A stretch of 64,000 bases of DNA from a virus. Under the pieces are notes generated by a model. The model did no database searches. It saw only the letters and a list, made by a program, of their open reading frames with translations, and was not told where the DNA came from. The stretch lies in UHGV virus genome UHGV-1493261; one strand, given 5' to 3'. Position numbers and translations under genes: made by a program. Positions 4,962-16,830 of this stretch are shown here, piece by piece (the first letter of the stretch is position 1; every line of letters begins with the position of its first letter).

Positions 4962-5000
4962 ATAATGTGTGGGCGGGGCGTTCCCCGCCTATTTGAAATG
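4962..5000 (+). promoter_or_regulatory. TATAAT / GC hairpin / ATTTGAAAT cassette upstream of gp44
   Basis: TGcTATAAT (4962-4967), hairpin GGGCGGGGCGTTCCCCGCC (4972-4990), TATTTGAAAT (4991-5000), then GAGG RBS and ATG 5022. Confidence 0.5.
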
Positions 5001-7843: not shown

Positions 7844-7876
7844 AACAGAGGCTATAATGGCCTCTGTTTTCTTATT
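7844..7876 (+). terminator. rho-independent terminator with TATAATG loop
   Basis: ACAGAGGC / loop TATAATG / GCCTCTGT followed by TTTCTTATTCT, after the stop at 7821. Confidence 0.6.
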
Positions 7877-7889
7877 CTGTGAGGATACC

Positions 7890-9086
7890 ATGAAAGACAA
7901 AGCCCTGGACGTCCCGTACTGCGGTGTCCGCGAAGAAAAGATAAAGTCGGCCAAACCGGTTCTCAGTCCGACCCATACCCGCCTGTCTTACGAATGGATG
8001 CGCGATCGTTATCAGATCCACGTCAAGAAGGACGTCCAGCGCCTTCCTGCTCCTTGGACTGATAATCCCATATTACGCCAGGTTAAATTCTGTAACGTCC
8101 GGAGAGAGCACGACAGGCAGTCTCTCAACCTGATCAATAACATTGTCAAGAACGATGCTCTGGGCATGGCAGACAAGATGTTCAACTGCGTGTTGTTCCG
8201 CATGTTCAACCTCTGGGATCCGATCCAGGCTATCGGCGGCGCGATGACGATCAAAGAATTCGCCAAGATCAACCTCGATGCAACCCGCGAACGACTTCAG
8301 AAGTTCGAGGCCGACGGCGGTAAAGTATTCACCAATGCCTTCAACACGGGCGGTCTGAAGCAATGCCTGGCTTTCCCTGAGATGGTTGTCAACCACAAGG
8401 AGCAGCGCTTCGGTGGGATGATGGTGAATCTGATCTGTAAAGACGGTTCAACCCAGAACATGGATTATAAAGAAGCCAAGGCGATAGCCGAAGCAGAGCC
8501 GGACTTCTACACCATCGAAGGTTGGGAACCGTACATGCCAATGCGTGTCATCCGCTCCCTGAAGGCATTCGTCAACAAGTATCCAAATTATTTCCATGAC
8601 CTGCTGCGCCTTGATACGCCTTTGGAAGTATACCAGCGCATGTACGACGACATCGAAGGGCTTGGTCCATTCCTGGCCTATCAGATCTGGGTTGATTTCA
8701 CGTACATTCCTGGATATCCTTTCAGTGAGAACCACTTCACGGTTGCTGGACCAGGCTGTCGCGCAGGGATTGATCTTCTGTTCCTGAACAAAGACGGTAT
8801 GACCCACGAAGAATGCATCTTCTGGTTGCGGGACAATCAGGACGCAGTTTATGGTCCTCTTGGGTATAACAGGGAAGAATTTTGGTCTGAGGAAGAGCCT
8901 TGGGATCGCCATTTAAATATAATGGCAGGAGAAAATATGTTTTGTGAACTTCAGAAATATACCCGTTGTGTAGAGGCCATACAGCAAGGTAAAAAACCGC
9001 GCGGGAAGGTTGGATACGATGGGGAAGGACGACCTAAAGCGACGACATCTGGTTCTAAAAACCTACTAAATTTATTTAAAAAGTAA
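7890..9086 (+). CDS. hypothetical protein (aromatic-rich, about 399 aa)
   Basis: Start at ATG 7890 (GAGGA RBS) downstream of the terminator hairpin at 7844-7876. Track ORF 7857 begins inside that hairpin. No recognised motif. Confidence 0.55.
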   Translation: MKDKALDVPYCGVREEKIKSAKPVLSPTHTRLSYEWMRDRYQIHVKKDVQRLPAPWTDNPILRQVKFCNVRREHDRQSLNLINNIVKNDALGMADKMFNCVLFRMFNLWDPIQAIGGAMTIKEFAKINLDATRERLQKFEADGGKVFTNAFNTGGLKQCLAFPEMVVNHKEQRFGGMMVNLICKDGSTQNMDYKEAKAIAEAEPDFYTIEGWEPYMPMRVIRSLKAFVNKYPNYFHDLLRLDTPLEVYQRMYDDIEGLGPFLAYQIWVDFTYIPGYPFSENHFTVAGPGCRAGIDLLFLNKDGMTHEECIFWLRDNQDAVYGPLGYNREEFWSEEEPWDRHLNIMAGENMFCELQKYTRCVEAIQQGKKPRGKVGYDGEGRPKATTSGSKNLLNLFKK

Positions 9087-9145: not shown

Positions 9146-10075
9146 ATGTTTTACGAATTATTGATTTCTAAAGGCGGTAAACCGCATTTTATCAAGAAGT
9201 ATTTGAGGATGATTCAATCTTTCAAATATTCTGATGGTGACTACACTGAATTACACCACATCCTTCCCAAGAGCATGTTCCCTGAATATTCTAAAGATAA
9301 GATCAATTTGGCAAGACTTACTGGCAGGCAACATTATCTTGCCCATGTGTGTTTGGCCTTGGCTTTCCCGAATTCTGATATGGTATATGCTGTTATTTTG
9401 ATGAGCCGTGGGGGTAGGTATACACCAACGGGTATAAAATTTAATTCTCACCTTTACGAAAAGTTAAGGAAAGAATTTGGACAAAGAATATCCAAACTCA
9501 CAAAGGGTGTCTCTAAATGCGTCGGGGCAAACAACCCAATGTATGGGAGAAGAGGAAAGAATAATCCCCAATATAGATATAAGAGAACTCCAGAGCAAGT
9601 CAAGAAAATTACCAAAGGATTGATGAAAATCCATGAAAGGATGGCTTCTGATCCTGAATATAAAAGGCGGGTTTTAGAGAAACGCCGCGCCAACATGGAT
9701 TTAGAACAATTTTCTGAACGTGCCAGGAAAGCTAAACTTGGGGAACTTAATCCAAATCATGGCAAAGATATTACCAACACGTTTACCCCTGAACAACGAC
9801 AGAAACAAATAGAAGGTATTAGAAAAGCCCATTTATCAAAAATGCCCTGGGAGAAACCGCGTTGGTCTGATGAAAAGGACATGTATTGGGCGAAAGCTGA
9901 TAAATTCCTTGAAGCAATGAAAACAATGAAAAGAGCGGAAGCCCTCATGCATGTGTACGGAACAAAGGATTTGAAGGCTTTTAATGCGACAAACAGCATT
10001 ATCGAACGTTTCAATAGAGGGTGGGAACCTTTGAAATGTCCTAAATGGACAGAACGATACGGTTCTTCTGAATAA
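9146..10075 (+). CDS. HNH homing endonuclease with NUMOD-like repeats
   Basis: ELHHILPKSMFPEY...NLARLTGRQHYLAHV (HNH motif); NPMYGRRGKNNPQY and NPNHGK repeats. Visibly AT-rich codons compared with flanking genes. Free-standing between conserved genes. Confidence 0.8.
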   Translation: MFYELLISKGGKPHFIKKYLRMIQSFKYSDGDYTELHHILPKSMFPEYSKDKINLARLTGRQHYLAHVCLALAFPNSDMVYAVILMSRGGRYTPTGIKFNSHLYEKLRKEFGQRISKLTKGVSKCVGANNPMYGRRGKNNPQYRYKRTPEQVKKITKGLMKIHERMASDPEYKRRVLEKRRANMDLEQFSERARKAKLGELNPNHGKDITNTFTPEQRQKQIEGIRKAHLSKMPWEKPRWSDEKDMYWAKADKFLEAMKTMKRAEALMHVYGTKDLKAFNATNSIIERFNRGWEPLKCPKWTERYGSSE

Positions 10076-10138: not shown

Positions 10139-10178
10139 GCGCCCTGGCAAACGGGGCGCACATTTGAACTGAAACAGG
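10139..10178 (+). promoter_or_regulatory. GC hairpin / ATTTGAA cassette
   Basis: Hairpin GCGCCC-loop-GGGCGC (10139-10159) then ACATTTGAACTGAAAC and GGAAGATTACATCATG 10190. Confidence 0.4.
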
Positions 10179-10189
10179 AAGATTACATC

Positions 10190-12208
10190 ATGTCAGATTT
10201 TAAGTCCTTCGCAGTAGCTGTCAACAATAACGTGCTGGCCATGTCAGCAACTGGTCTGTTCATGACCAACATCGATAAAGATGCTCTGTGGGATCTGTAT
10301 CTGTCTTCTTTCCCTGCTGGCACTAACCCGCTTTATCGTGAGCGTACCGAGCACGACTGCACCTGCTGTAAACAATTCATCCGTAACATTGGCGGTGTGG
10401 TCACCATCGACTCCGACCTGAACGTGATCTCTATCTGGGATAACATTCAGCTGGGTAACGAATACGACGTTGTCTCTGCGGCGCTGTCAGCGTATGTTAA
10501 GCAGCACGCAATCGTCGACGTGTACTTCAACGACACCAAGAAAGTTGGTGTTGAGTCGAATCACGAAATGAAAGACGGTATTGTCCGCACCTACAACCAC
10601 TTCCACACCGACCTGCTGGGTAGCTATGTTCTGCGGGCAGATACCATCGCTTCTAAGAAGGGTGAAATCCGCCAGGCGATTGAAGTGTTTGAGCGCGGCC
10701 TGCGCGAACTGTCTCTGGAATCGGCTGAAATCGTCCTGGAACTGATCGATCAGAATTCTCTGTATCGCGGTGAAGAGCACAAAGCGGCAGTGCAGGCGTT
10801 CGTGGTGAACAAGACCATGTACGAACAAACTGCAGAAGAGAAACGCGCTCTGTGGGCTTGGCGCACTGGCTACCGTGCAAACGGTCATACCCCTCACGGC
10901 ATTCGTAATACCGTGATTGGCTCTCTGCTGGTAGACCTCAATGAAGGCCGGGATCTGGAAACCGCCGTGAAGTCCTTTGAAGCCAAAGTCGCTCCGACGA
11001 ACTACAAGCGCCCGACTGCGCTGGTGACAAAGTCGATGATCGAAAACGCGCAGAAAGAAGTCGAAGCGCTGGGTCTGACTGATTCGCTGGGTCGCCGTTA
11101 TGCCGTGTATGACGATCTGACCATCAACAACGTTCTGTTCGCCGATCTGGCAGCGCAGAAGAAGATGGACCCGTTTGCTCAACTGGCGTCTGAAGTGAAG
11201 ACTCCGACCAAGTCCCTGGATAAGGTTGAAGAGATCACCATCGACGACTTCCTGGCCAACGTGTTGCCAAAGGCGCATTCCATGGAAGTGCTGGTTGAGA
11301 ACTCTCACATTGGCAACCTGATGTCTCTGATCGCTCCGGCGAACCCAGATGCACCTAACCTGTTCAAGTGGAACAACGGCTTCAGCTGGTCATACAACGG
11401 TGAAGTGGCAGACTCCATCAAAGAGCGCGTGAAGACCGCTGGTGGCAACGTTGACAGCTTCCTCCGTGTGTCACTGGCTTGGCATAACAACGACGACCTG
11501 GATCTGAGCCTGAACGATCCTCTTCACAACCACGTGTACTTCCGCAACCGTCGTTCGTCAACAGGTGCAACCCTGGACATCGATATGAACGGTATGGATG
11601 GCATTGACCCAAATCGCCGTCCGGTGGAGAACATCTTCTTCAGCGATGAACGCAAGCTACGTGACGGGAATTATGAGTTCTATGTCACCAACTACAACAA
11701 GCGTGAAACCTGTGACGTTGGCTTCGAAATCGAAGTCGAATACAAAGGCCAGACCAAGCGCTTCTCACATCCTGGTCTGGGTAACAAAGATCGCACGTTG
11801 GCTGTTGTGGTTCAGGTTCGCGCTGGTCAGGTAGTAGACATCCGTTCCACCCTGAAAGACGACGAACGCTCTCAGGAAATCTGGGGTATCAAGACTGCTA
11901 CCTTCCAGAAAGTACAGCTGGTCCTGAATTCACCAAACCATTGGGACGGCGAGCAGACGGGCAACAAGCACGTGTTCTTCATCCTGGAAGGTTGCGCCAA
12001 CCCTGTGGGCACCCGTGGCTTCTACAACGAATATCTGAAGCCGGAACTGGATAAACACCGCAAGGTTTTTGAAATGTTAGGTGGTAAGATTAAAGTACAG
12101 CCAAGCACTGAGCAGCTGTCCGGTCTGGGCTTCTCTACCACCCAACGCAACCACGTGTTCGTGAAGGTGAGCGGCTCGTTCAACCGCACTGTGAAAGTTG
12201 TGTTCTAA
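10190..12208 (+). CDS. hypothetical protein (672 aa)
   Basis: Long ORF with strong initiation context GGAAGATTACATCATG and upstream GC hairpin plus ATTTGAA element. No GHKL motifs, so not rIIA-like. Function unknown. Confidence 0.7.
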   Translation: MSDFKSFAVAVNNNVLAMSATGLFMTNIDKDALWDLYLSSFPAGTNPLYRERTEHDCTCCKQFIRNIGGVVTIDSDLNVISIWDNIQLGNEYDVVSAALSAYVKQHAIVDVYFNDTKKVGVESNHEMKDGIVRTYNHFHTDLLGSYVLRADTIASKKGEIRQAIEVFERGLRELSLESAEIVLELIDQNSLYRGEEHKAAVQAFVVNKTMYEQTAEEKRALWAWRTGYRANGHTPHGIRNTVIGSLLVDLNEGRDLETAVKSFEAKVAPTNYKRPTALVTKSMIENAQKEVEALGLTDSLGRRYAVYDDLTINNVLFADLAAQKKMDPFAQLASEVKTPTKSLDKVEEITIDDFLANVLPKAHSMEVLVENSHIGNLMSLIAPANPDAPNLFKWNNGFSWSYNGEVADSIKERVKTAGGNVDSFLRVSLAWHNNDDLDLSLNDPLHNHVYFRNRRSSTGATLDIDMNGMDGIDPNRRPVENIFFSDERKLRDGNYEFYVTNYNKRETCDVGFEIEVEYKGQTKRFSHPGLGNKDRTLAVVVQVRAGQVVDIRSTLKDDERSQEIWGIKTATFQKVQLVLNSPNHWDGEQTGNKHVFFILEGCANPVGTRGFYNEYLKPELDKHRKVFEMLGGKIKVQPSTEQLSGLGFSTTQRNHVFVKVSGSFNRTVKVVF

Positions 12209-12252
12209 ACCTGATTTGAAATTGTGTCCCATTCATCATTGAGGATAGTAAA

Positions 12253-12624
12253 ATGTTTGATAAAGTAACCCGTCTGAAACTGCGCTTCGAGTCTAACAAA
12301 GGTCTGCTGTCTGTTGAGCAGGTCTGGGACCTGAGCCTGACCGCTCTGAACGAAATGGCGAAAAGCCTGAGCCGTCAGGTGAAGGCAGCGGAAACCGATG
12401 AAGAAGATTTCATTGGCACCAAAAGCAACGTTGACTCCGAACTGCAGCTGCGCTTCGACGTTGTCAAGCACATCATCGGCGTTAAGCTGAAAGAACGTGA
12501 CGACAGCAGAGACGCGGCAGAGCGTAAGGCGAACAACCAGGTTATCCTGGAGCTGATCCAGCGTAAGAAACAGCAAGAGCTGGAAAGCAAATCTGTTGAA
12601 GAACTGGAAGCGCTGCTGAAATAA
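12253..12624 (+). CDS. hypothetical coiled-coil protein
   Basis: 123 aa, GAGGA RBS, followed by a rho-independent terminator at 12647-12675. The overlapping minus ORF 12205..13050 looks antisense. Confidence 0.55.
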   Translation: MFDKVTRLKLRFESNKGLLSVEQVWDLSLTALNEMAKSLSRQVKAAETDEEDFIGTKSNVDSELQLRFDVVKHIIGVKLKERDDSRDAAERKANNQVILELIQRKKQQELESKSVEELEALLK

Positions 12625-13067: not shown

Positions 13068-13940
13068 ATGACAAATCGTACTGGCATAAAACTCACTCCT
13101 GAAGTCCTGAAGTCACATATCGCTGAGGTGATTTACGAAGACCGCGAAGTCGGCGGTCACCGGGCTATCACTTGTCATTTCAAGATGGATAACGGCTTCG
13201 TCGTTCACGGCACCAAGCCCAGCACATCCATAGACCCGGCCAACTTCGATGAAGCCCTGGGCAAAGAGATTTCCTACAATAACACCTTCGACCAGCTGTG
13301 GCAGCTGGAGGCGTACCGGGCGCTTGTTGAACAAGATCTGTTGGCCAAAGCCACGGAAACGGCAGAGATACAGATCGATCAATACGCTGTTGAACGTAGC
13401 GCCCTCTGTCCGGCCTATCACCTCGGCTTCAATGTGATGGTTCAGGAAGTGATGTTCAAAGCGGAAAATGGTGAGCGCTTCTTGGCATCTTTCGTTTGTG
13501 GGCCGGATGACATGGAACTTGTTGTTGAATCTCACAACGCCAAATCTCGTAAGGCTGTTAGTGATTTCCTGCGCGCCAACTCCAAACTCGATCTCACTTA
13601 TTCGCCATTGGTTCTGCGCATCGCCAAGATTTGTCATGAAGCCAACCGCGCATACTGCAAGTCTATTGGTGACGACTCTCAACTGCCTTGGGAACAATCT
13701 CCGGCCTGGCAGCGTGAGAGCGCTTGCAAAGGTGTTATCTTCCATCTCACTGGTGATCGTAAGCCCAGCGAATCGCATGAGAGATGGATGGCGGAGAAGG
13801 AGTCTGAGGGATGGGTGTATGGCCCAGTCAAAGACCCTCAGACCAAGCAACACCCTTGCATGGTTCCGTATGGAGAACTCCCGGTACAACAACGCTCCAA
13901 AGATTATATTTTCAAATCCATTGTAGACTCCTTTAAATAA
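13068..13940 (+). CDS. RyR-domain protein
   Basis: C-terminal HERWMAEKESEGWVYGPVKDPQTKQHPCMVPYGELPVQQRSKD matches the ryanodine-receptor (RyR) repeat pattern (W..GW.YG...D...K.HP.L.PY..L). N-terminal 200 aa unassigned. Confidence 0.6.
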   Translation: MTNRTGIKLTPEVLKSHIAEVIYEDREVGGHRAITCHFKMDNGFVVHGTKPSTSIDPANFDEALGKEISYNNTFDQLWQLEAYRALVEQDLLAKATETAEIQIDQYAVERSALCPAYHLGFNVMVQEVMFKAENGERFLASFVCGPDDMELVVESHNAKSRKAVSDFLRANSKLDLTYSPLVLRIAKICHEANRAYCKSIGDDSQLPWEQSPAWQRESACKGVIFHLTGDRKPSESHERWMAEKESEGWVYGPVKDPQTKQHPCMVPYGELPVQQRSKDYIFKSIVDSFK

Positions 13941-14090: not shown

Positions 14091-14267
14091 ATGACCGACA
14101 ACAAATTAAAACGCGCCGGACTTGATTGTCTTGACAATTCATTCCGCCCCAGTGATGTTCTGGTCGCCCAAATGGAAAACAACCGGGATTTCATTGAAAC
14201 TATGCTGGAGAACGCCGACGCGAACTCCAAACACTCCAAAGCCCAAAAAGGTCAAAACGATGATTGA
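14091..14267 (+). CDS. small hypothetical protein (58 aa)
   Basis: ATG 14091 after GAGAG; charged helical peptide; stop overlaps the start of the vWA gene by 8 nt. Below the 60-aa cut-off from this start. Confidence 0.3.
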   Translation: MTDNKLKRAGLDCLDNSFRPSDVLVAQMENNRDFIETMLENADANSKHSKAQKGQNDD

Positions 14268-16461
14268 GTCATTAACATTTAAGAATGCGGTTGCGACCGT
14301 CGCGCCGTCTAACCATGTAATCGTTGTGGATATCTCCGGTTCCATGTATCGTTCACTTCCAGAAGTCCGTAAGCATCTGAAGGAGAACCTGCCTTCCCTG
14401 GTGAAACCCGAAGATACTGTGAGCATCCTTTACTTTTCATCTCGCGGTGATTTCGGAACGGTATTTGCCGGACGTCAGATCGGTGTCGCATCTGACCTGA
14501 GCGAGCTGAATAAGCTGATCGACCGTTTCCTGCAACCATCCGGCTGTACTGGTTTTGTTGAGCCATTGAAACTGGCGATGGATACTGCGCGCGGCCTGAA
14601 GAAACCCGGCTACGTCAACAACCTGGCATTCATGACCGATGGTTATGACAACTGCTGGCGCTCCAATGAAATCCTGGATACCGCCGAAAAACTTCCTTCC
14701 GCGTTCGACAACGTTACATTCATCGAATACGGCTGGCACTGTAACCGTGAACTGCTGGCGCAGATGGCCGAACGCTCTGGTGCAACCCACGTTTTCGCCG
14801 AAGGTCAGACTGAATATCAGACCGAGCTGGAAAACGTGCTGAAGTCATCAGTGCCGAAGGTGAAAGTTGATGTCCCAGTCATCTACACCCATGCCATCTA
14901 CGTCGAAAACGGTGTGGCAACAGTACTGGCGGTGCAGGACGATGACGCTCACCCGGTCGGTTATGTGAGCATCCCTGAGAGCGTCACCAAGCTGTGGGTT
15001 GTAAACCCTAACATGATCGACCAGATGGATAGCCTGACGGACATCCAGGCGGCATACGTGCTGGCGTTCTACGGCGTACACACTATGGACGCAGATCTGG
15101 TTTGGGCTGCGCTGAAGAAGACGGGCGACGTTCGCTTCATCAAACAGTACAGCAACTGCTTCACCAAGCAGGACTACTCCAACATCAAGAACGATCTGAC
15201 CCAGGCCATCGTTGATGACCAGCTGCGCGGCGTTGACGGTATTGACTATGACCTGGTTCCAGCTGAAGATGCGACCACCGTCGTTGATGTGCTGACGTAC
15301 CTGGCTGAAGCTGGTGTGCCTGTTGCTACCAAGCATCCGATGTTCTCCTATAAGAGTATCGGGCGCGGTACGGTTCAGAAAACCGACGACACCGAAGACA
15401 AGCTGGCAGAACAGATCGCGAATGCTCAGTCCAAAGAAGAGCGTAAAGCCCTGGCTCTCAAGCTGGCAGAACACGAAGAGTGGAACCCGACGTTCGAACC
15501 TACCAACGACCTGGGTGTTGTGCCAATCAGCGATTTGGTCTATAATTCCGAACGCCCGAACATCAGTGTGCGTACAATTCAACACGGTACTGTGGCTGTG
15601 CCTGAATTCGCACAGAAGAAGTTTGGCCTGCCTGAAGAACTGGATACTTTCCAGTGGCGCAACTACACCATCGTCAAAGATGGTATCATCAACGTGAAGA
15701 CCCTGCCGTTCAAGGCTGATATCGAAGTTGTACAGAAGCTGATCGAAATGGGCGTCCACGTGTTTGGTGGTCCGGAAGTGTTCATCTTGAACCTGGAAAG
15801 CGTACCGCTGGTCAACCGCGCCATGGTCAAGAACATCAGTGCTGCTCAGTTCTTTGCGGATAATGTCCGTCTGGAAGCCCTGAAAGGCAAGCAGAAGGTG
15901 CTGAAGTTCTATCGAGACGCCCTGGTTGGTAAGGGTAACGCCAAAGGCCTGGCAGTACAGTACGGCGCTGAGGCGGCCGAGTTCCTGTCCTCCTATGGCA
16001 TCCGCGATTACGGCTTCTCACCGAAGACTGAGACCAAAGAGTCTACCGACTTCTACATGAGCCGTGAGCTGAACGTGAAGATCGCTGGCGCTTCTTCTCT
16101 ACCGTCTATCGCAGCGGTACAGAAGAAGATAGCCGAGAACAAGAAACTCAATGCTGGTGACTTGTTCATCGCCAATGCGCTGAAGGAGTACGAAGCATTC
16201 GTGAAGTCTCCTATGATCACTGCCGTGCCTGAAGCCTTACAGAAACATCTGATCGAAAACTGGATCGACGCTGCTGCCAAGGCGGCCATCACCGAAGTCC
16301 GTGCTCTGAACAAGACGCTGTCTAAAGTGGTGTATGGTATCGTTGCTGGTCATGGCTGGTTCACCGACCTCGACCTGGAAGAGTCCACCATGGAAGTTGA
16401 AGTGGATGGGGTGAAGTACAAGGTCACTGCCGAACTGGCAGAGAAAGAAATCAAAATCTAA
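14260..16461 (+). CDS. vWA-domain protein (MIDAS motif), 733 aa
   Basis: Start at ATG 14260 (AAAGG RBS) inside track ORF 14122. N-terminal VIVVDISGSM...ILYFSSRGD...FMTDG fits a von Willebrand A fold with DxSxS MIDAS. About 500 aa C-terminal unassigned. Confidence 0.7.
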   Translation: MIESLTFKNAVATVAPSNHVIVVDISGSMYRSLPEVRKHLKENLPSLVKPEDTVSILYFSSRGDFGTVFAGRQIGVASDLSELNKLIDRFLQPSGCTGFVEPLKLAMDTARGLKKPGYVNNLAFMTDGYDNCWRSNEILDTAEKLPSAFDNVTFIEYGWHCNRELLAQMAERSGATHVFAEGQTEYQTELENVLKSSVPKVKVDVPVIYTHAIYVENGVATVLAVQDDDAHPVGYVSIPESVTKLWVVNPNMIDQMDSLTDIQAAYVLAFYGVHTMDADLVWAALKKTGDVRFIKQYSNCFTKQDYSNIKNDLTQAIVDDQLRGVDGIDYDLVPAEDATTVVDVLTYLAEAGVPVATKHPMFSYKSIGRGTVQKTDDTEDKLAEQIANAQSKEERKALALKLAEHEEWNPTFEPTNDLGVVPISDLVYNSERPNISVRTIQHGTVAVPEFAQKKFGLPEELDTFQWRNYTIVKDGIINVKTLPFKADIEVVQKLIEMGVHVFGGPEVFILNLESVPLVNRAMVKNISAAQFFADNVRLEALKGKQKVLKFYRDALVGKGNAKGLAVQYGAEAAEFLSSYGIRDYGFSPKTETKESTDFYMSRELNVKIAGASSLPSIAAVQKKIAENKKLNAGDLFIANALKEYEAFVKSPMITAVPEALQKHLIENWIDAAAKAAITEVRALNKTLSKVVYGIVAGHGWFTDLDLEESTMEVEVDGVKYKVTAELAEKEIKI

Positions 16462-16503: not shown

Positions 16504-16830
16504 ATGAGCAGTAAACCAACATATGTTGAAGTCATGCGTCATCTGGCTCAGTACGCCACTGACAATTTGAACTTAGATGCAGATGAGGTGAAATACCCAG
16601 ACGTCAAGAAAATGATTGACGGCGAAGTTGTCATAGACGATGCGTTGGACAAGTTTGCAGGCCTCCGCACCAAGAAAGATCTGGGTGGTGACGAACTCGA
16701 TACCATCGAAATCGTGATGGACCTGGAAGAAGAGTTCAACGTCGAAATCGACGACGGTTGGCTAGGTAGTAAAGGCGATGACCCGACCATGGGTGAACTC
16801 GCTGAACTCGTGGTTGCCCTGCGCAAATAA
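16504..16830 (+). CDS. acyl-carrier-protein-like protein lacking the phosphopantetheine serine
   Basis: DLGGDELDTIEIVMDLEEEFNVEID aligns with E. coli ACP [25 protein letters not shown] but has DELD in place of DSLD. GGGAGA RBS. Terminator at 16837-16866. Confidence 0.6.
   Translation: MSSKPTYVEVMRHLAQYATDNLNLDADEVKYPDVKKMIDGEVVIDDALDKFAGLRTKKDLGGDELDTIEIVMDLEEEFNVEIDDGWLGSKGDDPTMGELAELVVALRK

Follow-up and report, generated by a model that had tools for sequence, protein, structure and literature searches.

DUF8224, a conserved phage protein with a TerD-like insert, and its small partner form a two-gene module of possible enzyme-like function

The 64,000-nucleotide (nt) stretch UHGV-1493261, hereafter called the window and used as the reference for all positions unless another locus is named, carries an ATG-initiated open reading frame (ORF) at 10190-12208 on the + strand. 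Its 672 codons encode a protein of 672 amino acids (aa), which profile comparison identifies as a full-length member of the uncharacterised family DUF8224 (PF26675), also defined as PHROG 1735. This protein is the large subunit of a two-gene module, the second gene of which is the ORF at 12253-12624. Our preferred reading, to which we give a probability of about 30%, is that DUF8224 and its partner may constitute an auxiliary enzyme-like module acting on a universal nucleic-acid or nucleotide substrate, with a regulatory role for a TerD-like insert of the large protein and for the partner. The linkage to the 123-aa partner, the existence of a stand-alone chromosomal cassette and the deletion of the module in the viable phage LIMEstone1 are new here. 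A first-pass annotation of the same DNA had proposed the 672-aa gene at 10190-12208, the ORF of which is confirmed, and had seen in it a possible factor of host takeover or anti-defence; it had overlooked the partner gene and the TerD-fold domain.

The match to PHROG 1735 (E = 0, 1024 bits) aligns residues 1-672 with profile positions 1-673, and the PF26675 domain is precomputed on homologues having 98% identity to the window protein. Local Pfam-A returns nothing for the 672-aa protein; PF26675 is newer than that copy. Searches with the single sequence and with a profile did not find any match in NCBIfam, PADLOC, the PDB sequences or the local Pfam-A either, in agreement with the earlier statement that no motif in the protein could be placed. 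Nor was any clear homology found to a structural or metabolic family already characterised. Membership in DUF8224/PHROG 1735 and, for the partner, in PHROG 2018 is full-length and high-scoring, with no structural difference. Since DUF8224, PHROG 1735 and PHROG 2018 are devoid of functional annotation, membership explains no mechanism, and a literature search found nothing on PF26675, DUF8224 or phrog_1735. The large subunit (75.7 kDa, pI 5.9) is soluble, with no predicted transmembrane segment in its 672 aa (maximum KD19 = 1.28).

In a library clustered at 50% identity, 4913 cluster representatives were retrieved at E <= 1e-3 and 1239 at E <= 1e-30. The best 150 representatives listed are all 649-764 aa long. 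A DUF8224 match is present in 557 phage records. The carriers include Ackermannviridae, Certrevirus- and Mydovirus-type myoviruses, phiCbK-like Caulobacter phages, some N4-like phages, Bacillus cereus phages of ~158 kb, and phages of Clostridioides, Microcystis and Cellulophaga. The family is also carried by 21 large non-mobilisable "plasmids", which are probably phage-plasmids. Full-length identity to the window protein is 40-50% across phages of Proteobacteria, Firmicutes and Cyanobacteria as well as actinobacterial chromosomes, and it reaches 94-98% for published Kuttervirus and Agtrevirus orthologues. Between the window and Serratia phage phiMAM1, DUF8224 is 56% identical, to be compared with 52% for the clamp, 58-67% for the clamp-loader subunits and 60% for UvsW; by this measure, DUF8224 diverges within Ackermannviridae at the rate of replication core genes. 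Among 73 diverse members of the family, about 20 polar or glycine residues are invariant. Two phage transposon-sequencing studies cover PhiKZ, T4, Bas37 and Bas54; there was no sign of the family in the E. coli Vequintavirus group, that of Bas54, and the four phages themselves were not checked directly.

The partner gene (12253-12624, + strand) encodes an acidic, helical protein of 123 aa and 14 kDa that matches PHROG 2018 at E = 1e-46. The protein has a conserved N-terminal motif, MFxKATRLKLRFxSxKGxLSVEDLWDLPL, and is 37-46% identical to the product of the gene located directly downstream of DUF8224 in distant metagenomic phages. The two genes are adjacent in 27 of 28 genome-derived loci. An iterative search of the 119 loci fetched, from which the counts of presence and strand are used, found the partner on the same strand in 111, which corresponds to 111/111 long-form loci with enough sequence. 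Among the eight loci without a partner, three are on contigs that end at the DUF8224 gene, and the other five are all the short-form loci (0/5), which are described below. In a few loci, the partner is not immediately downstream; one to three small genes are inserted or the partner lies just upstream. Inserted genes part DUF8224 from its partner in some gut and environmental phages (L066, L073-L075, L098, L109, and L111) and correspond to a 312-aa ORF, to tandem ORFs of ~90 aa with a shared motif, or to a 219-aa ORF. Because inserted genes split the pair in these phages, the junction may be an insertion hotspot. No Pfam domain, source name, PDB relative, PADLOC match or informative match in a large protein collection was obtained for the partner. 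A third co-conserved gene was sought (vWA, AAA ATPase, PRTase, ligase), and none was found beyond lineage-level synteny.

The pair is also found in the chromosomes of Micromonosporaceae. Eleven Actinoplanes, Paractinoplanes, Micromonospora and related assemblies carry it, on contigs of up to 3.3 Mb. Between these species, the two genes alone are conserved (81-91% aa identity) and the flanks are unrelated. A Pfam scan of the flanks shows permeases, regulators, MFS transporters and other ordinary genes of the cell, with no virion or integrase family among the 25 commonest Pfam families listed. Since the pair is conserved with unrelated flanks, it is autonomous and kept under selection in cells.

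The architecture of the large subunit was examined using an AlphaFold2 model (mean pLDDT 81), and the corresponding codons given here are all on the + strand. The N-terminal module (residues 1-295; 10190-11074) is made up of an alpha/beta subdomain (1-145) and a helical bundle (150-295). It harbors a putative metal site, formed by Cys57-Thr-Cys59-Cys60 (10358-10369) with His137 (10598-10600). Conservation among the 73 diverse members is at least 90% for Cys57 and Cys60 and complete for His137. In the model, the two cysteines are located at the N-terminus of a helix and His137 is nearby. The next part is a small alpha/beta region (residues 300-415; 11087-11434) with the invariant polar elements RRxA, D309, W394, SWSY and SIKERVKxAGG. 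This region probably packs with the C-terminal domain, because it is folded only in the full-length model and is disordered when the C-terminal part is omitted. It is followed by the TerD-fold beta-sandwich insert (residues ~420-555; 11447-11854), in which W431, D436, D438, L462, D463, D465, E480, and N481 are invariant. Finally, the C-terminal alpha/beta domain (residues ~560-672; 11867-12205) contains the motifs SPNxW (581-585), GNKH (591-594), and RGFYNE (609-614).

Not all members of PF26675 have this complete architecture. Short forms of ~540 aa (PaMx74_08, DLP4 and Xanthomonas phage proteins) keep the N-terminal module with the Cys cluster, including the Cys motif of PaMx74_08, and the C-terminal domain (for example, LLVLEGCRDG...LFPECLRGEL in PaMx74_08). 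They have neither the TerD-fold insert nor the partner. Thus, the insert and the partner occur together in every locus examined. The short-form siphovirus proteins are also encoded amid nucleotide and nucleic-acid genes (RNR, PseT, ligase, RtcB).

The assignment of the insert comes from structural comparison. Foldseek on a predicted structure, a check recommended by the first-pass annotation, gave only noise against the PDB with the whole model. The insert has the TerD beta-sandwich fold. This fold is shared with TerD, TerE and TerZ (PDB 2kxt, 3ibz, 2qz7), Ca2+-binding proteins of the Ter system of tellurite resistance and phage inhibition. However, proteins of the TerD family are stand-alone and of ~190 aa, whereas the DUF8224 counterpart is an insert within a 672-aa protein of otherwise unplaced fold, and the TerC, TerB and TelA genes of the Ter system are not co-conserved with DUF8224. 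The TerD family PF02342 has no match at E <= 1 in the window protein or in the 73 diverse members, and a Pfam scan of these members gave only sub-threshold beta-sandwich matches, P_proprotein in 4 and DUF2135 in 2. The canonical Ca2+-binding motif GDN(R/L)TGEGDGDDE is absent. The invariant residues D436, D438, D463, D465, E480, and N481 are present and suggest a cation site.

Two other families had been set aside by the first-pass annotation, and they were rejected here as well. For an rIIA-like protein, a GHKL ATPase with N, G1 and G2 boxes, there is no GHKL (HATPase_c) match in Pfam and no GHKL structure among the fold matches. For an Alt-type ADP-ribosyltransferase with an R-S-E motif, no ADP-ribosyltransferase family was found in the Pfam scans and none among the structural matches.

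In several lineages, the genes surrounding the module deal with RNA repair or NAD+. The gene order is RNR, DUF8224, PseT, ligase in PaMx74 and DLP4. In Rhizobium phage RHph_X66 (L119, 4500-10383), the order is RtcB, DUF8224, NMNAT/Nudix, NAMPT, the last two forming a NARP2-like pair. In phage ChubbyThor (L001, 8124-14421), a NARP1-like pair, PRS and NAMPT, is found three genes downstream of DUF8224. The window phage itself is without these NAD-salvage genes. When 150 neighbour families were surveyed, the Pfam match obtained most often was RNA_ligase (4), and no virion gene was present among the 25 commonest families listed. RNA-repair modules (RtcB or Rnl with Pnk) and the NARP1 and NARP2 modules of NAD+ reconstitution resemble DUF8224 in being highly conserved, enzyme-type, non-essential and patchily distributed across unrelated virulent phages, and they physically adjoin it in several lineages. 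They have no homology to DUF8224, so that the analogy concerns conservation pattern and neighbourhood only.

A natural knockout is provided by Dickeya phage LIMEstone1 (L120, 3501-4881). A deletion in this phage takes DUF8224 residues 268-672 and the partner, as well as DUF3268, gp49/RyR, PRS, and NAMPT residues 1-445. The frameshifted remnants are annotated as three small ORFs and a 110-aa "nadV", and PHROGs 25920, 21434, 38165, and 23228 seem to be families made up of fragments of the DUF8224 gene. LIMEstone1 is viable and has been used in field trials (PMC3296691), and therefore the module is non-essential on the host of this phage.

On these grounds, the N- and C-terminal core, with its Cys-x2-Cys...His cluster and its invariant polar motifs, would act on a substrate common to all bacteria, for instance a nucleic acid or a nucleotide-type metabolite. 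An enzyme-like core acting on a universal substrate is proposed because of full-length conservation across host phyla, invariant polar residues, the Cys/His cluster, and persistence in chromosomes. The TerD-fold insert, with its six invariant acidic or amide residues, would be a regulatory domain binding a divalent cation (Ca2+) or a ligand and would act jointly with the small helical partner; the gain of the insert together with the partner suggests an added function in regulation or sensing. As the module is dispensable and patchily distributed, it would be auxiliary, like the RNA-repair and NAD-salvage modules, and useful under particular host or stress conditions (repair, restoration, competition) without being required for basic replication. 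A more specific version, somewhat less probable still, is that of a cation- or ligand-regulated two-component enzyme system restoring a universal molecule damaged in infection or in immune attack.

Several points weigh against this proposal. No catalytic motif or fold was found in DUF8224. The N-terminal module is without a PDB fold analogue and has no Pfam, NCBIfam or PDB sequence match, and the Cys/His cluster might bind zinc for structural purposes only. The TerD likeness is at the fold level only, which makes Ca2+ binding an extrapolation. Indeed, the hhalign probability with TerD is below 1%, and a hidden Markov model of the domain gives real TerD sequences scores that are not above those of 500 shuffled decoys. 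It is gene linkage alone that points to a physical interaction of the two proteins. The neighbourhood links are weak, with NAMPT or PRS in 5 of the 119 loci, ligases in ~17 and RtcB in 2, these being raw counts with no background rate. Finally, the loss in LIMEstone1 fits a defence or an anti-defence role equally well.

A phage exclusion or defence module akin to the Ter stress system is to be considered, although we hold it to be improbable. The TerD-like domain would sense a signal or a cation, the pair would block superinfection, and the cassette would have been domesticated for immunity in Micromonosporaceae. The ter cluster of R478 is known to confer phage inhibition. Such a role would account for the TerD fold of the insert, for an autonomous two-gene cassette in varied chromosomal contexts and for the dispensability of the module in LIMEstone1. 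Ter-type genes of phages have moreover been proposed to serve in competition: TerD, TerB, TerF-vWA and PRTase genes occur in phages, with a proposed role against superinfecting phages (Iyer et al., 2021; PMC7824862). Near DUF8224 are found a vWA protein in the window (14122-16461), PRS and NAMPT in ChubbyThor, and TerB in the N4-like Pseudomonas phage Zuri. However, the presence of vWA, PRTase and TerB neighbours depends on the lineage, without co-conservation, DUF8224 has no sequence membership in the TerD family, and the short forms are wholly without the TerD-like domain. Neither protein matches a PADLOC model; with PADLOC-DB 2.0, both proteins gave zero families at E <= 0.1, whether in their phage or in their Paractinoplanes version. 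Conservation is also far above that usual for defence genes. In Zuri (L031, 5412-14186), the gene immediately ahead of DUF8224 and its partner encodes a 499-aa AAA ATPase, and the TerB-domain protein (PF05099, 8.5e-12) is located ~5 kb downstream.

The idea of the first-pass annotation, an abundant early host-takeover or anti-defence protein that would inhibit a particular host protein or immune system, has a slightly smaller chance of being right. It fits with a gene located in a non-structural block, non-essential in LIMEstone1, and having NARP-like counter-defence genes two to three genes away in ChubbyThor and RHph_X66. In contrast, 40-50% identity across phages of Enterobacteria, Caulobacter, Bacillus, Clostridioides, Vibrio and cyanobacteria is unlike a host-specific binder, and so is maintenance by purifying selection in the chromosomes of actinobacteria. 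The first-pass annotation predicted high early expression from one of the strongest signals in the window, which is not confirmed here; a scan for the sigma-70 consensus found no promoter-like site on the + strand between 9338 and 12069. Only trace spectra are available, from one proteomic data set: mass spectrometry of a CsCl-purified virion preparation of phage Sajous1 gave 3 spectra for the orthologue gp179 and 1 for the partner gp180 (PMC10892097). These spectra indicate that both proteins are made, and the ORF is a genuine, expressed gene; they do not show abundance. Altogether, the conservation pattern makes a host-specific takeover factor unlikely. The takeover or inhibitor part of the earlier claim thus does not fit, whereas an auxiliary role, in anti-defence or of a repair type, would be compatible with the LIMEstone1 deletion and with the NARP-like, RtcB and RNA-ligase neighbours.

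Database labels offer two further explanations, and both failed every test. The protein is labelled as a DNA-directed RNA polymerase subunit or transcription factor in ChubbyThor (gp166), BIS47, Arace01 and GEC_vB_N6, the labels of ChubbyThor and Sajous1 probably originating from the Phyre2/HHpred annotation described in PMC10892097. We consider this function very unlikely. No Pfam RNA-polymerase domain is present in the window protein or in the 73 diverse members, neither a double-psi beta-barrel with DxDGD nor a single-subunit palm with motifs A and C was found, and in most records the protein is given as hypothetical. A virion or structural protein, as annotated in the single record of Salmonella phage Arash and as might be suggested by the 3 spectra in CsCl-purified Sajous1, is even less probable, since the gene lies amid replication genes, the cassette is present in bacterial chromosomes without prophage genes, the spectral counts are similar to those of non-structural proteins that co-purify, SSB and the clamp loader for instance (PMC10892097), and the protein, the gene of which is deleted in LIMEstone1, is not named in the consulted passages of the LIMEstone1 structural proteome table.

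The 5' region of the DUF8224 gene contains sequence features that are real and look functional, judging from their conservation and statistics. A conserved GC hairpin of 21 nt, GCGCCCTGGCAAACGGGGCGC (10139-10159, + strand), has a predicted folding energy of -18.5 kcal/mol (z = -4.1 with respect to dinucleotide shuffles). The motif ATTTGAA is found directly 3' of the hairpin (10162-10168, + strand). Hence, the cassette noticed by the first-pass annotation is present at 10139-10168. Next comes a Shine-Dalgarno sequence, AGGAAG (10176-10181), separated by an 8-nt spacer from the ATG (10176-10192 as a whole, + strand) and conserved in relatives as AACAGGAAGACTAyAyCATG. The consensus initiation context described earlier, GGAAGATTACATCATG, is likewise found at 10177-10192. 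Up to three mismatches, it has 5 matches in the window, to be compared with 0.69 expected, and one of 100 shuffles also gave 5. ATTTGAA is over-represented in the window (22 copies vs. 13.1 +/- 3.2 expected). The hairpin and ATTTGAA, 23-31 nt ahead of an ATG, are also observed at 4991, 17230, and 17788. The recurrent intergenic cassette of the + strand is thus composed of the GC hairpin, ATTTGAA, a purine-rich Shine-Dalgarno sequence and ACTAYAYCATG, with CTATAAT or CTATAAC ahead of it in three copies. A copy of ATTTGAA without hairpin is located at 12214-12220, 6 nt past the DUF8224 stop codon and ahead of the partner gene.

The whole 5' region, including the hairpin, is kept in seven Ackermannviridae. 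In the most distant of the seven, phiMAM1, the stem sequence differs and the pairing is kept, with a compensatory change from G-C to A-U. The hairpin is not called an intrinsic terminator by a consensus scan because the T-run is missing, and no Rfam family matches the hairpin/ATTTGAA cassette. The cassette may serve for termination, for processing by an RNase or as an element of the 5' untranslated region. Nothing was found in the literature for Ackermannviridae or Kuttervirus transcriptomics.

The DNA of this region is 94-97% identical to that of Escherichia phage vB_EcoM-RPN242, Salmonella phages Marshall and Maynard, and other Kuttervirus or Agtrevirus members; from this identity, the window is the DNA of a Kuttervirus-like phage of the Ackermannviridae. 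The gene order starts with the sliding clamp, the clamp loader, RegA, a MazG-like gene and a gene of the 5-hmdU-kinase-helical family (7857-9086). It continues with a homing endonuclease (9146-10075), DUF8224 and the 123-aa gene, and then with a DUF3268 zinc-finger gene, a gp49/RyR protein, a 779-aa vWA protein and an acyl carrier protein. The DUF8224 gene is therefore encoded within a replication and nucleotide-metabolism block.

Some of these neighbours have features of their own. The gene at 7857-9086 (+ strand) matches PF18723, the 5-hmdU DNA kinase helical domain, at 1e-78. ViI-like phages have a known thymidine hypermodification pathway, with which a PF18723 gene is in keeping. Its location next to DUF8224 is specific to Ackermannviridae. 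Between the two genes, the ORF at 9146-10075 (+ strand) corresponds to a free-standing HNH-type homing endonuclease (PHROG 655). Its GC content is 0.39, vs. 0.52 in its neighbours, and it is missing in most close relatives, whose matches start at window position 10068. LIMEstone1 has a 50%-identical homologue (F-LimVI) at the same site upstream of DUF8224. Downstream of the module, the protein encoded at 13068-13940 (+ strand) combines a domain of the N4 gp49 / Sf6 gp66 family with an RyR domain. It is 99% identical to that of a Klebsiella-type relative (L036), and only 41% (ChubbyThor, L001) or 48% (L034) identical to those of closer relatives, which suggests a recent exchange of this gene. 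Further on, the 779-aa protein (14122-16461, + strand) has an N-terminal vWA domain (PHROG 2426) and is followed by an acyl-carrier-protein-like gene (16504-16830, + strand). Its LIMEstone1 homologue is annotated as a confirmed structural protein.

Taken by itself, the window gene is ordinary, its orthologues from many Kuttervirus and Agtrevirus phages being already in the databases as "hypothetical proteins". The DUF8224 family, in turn, is among the more conserved blocks of phage dark matter, with thousands of clusters and full-length conservation across phyla. Its interest lies in a strictly linked partner, a TerD-fold insert that tracks this partner, an N-terminal fold without solved relative, cellular cassettes and a natural knockout. 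The LIMEstone1 deletion and the existence of short and long forms offer ready comparisons for experiments. Ackermannviridae are used in biocontrol and therapy against Salmonella, E. coli O157, Klebsiella and Dickeya, and the choice between a repair enzyme, an exclusion system and a counter-defence factor would affect host-range prediction and genome minimisation. If DUF8224 and its partner do restore a damaged universal molecule, they would add a new class to the auxiliary functions of counter-defence or repair, beside RNA repair and NAD+ reconstitution, one that hundreds of unrelated virulent phages carry and that Micromonosporaceae have domesticated.

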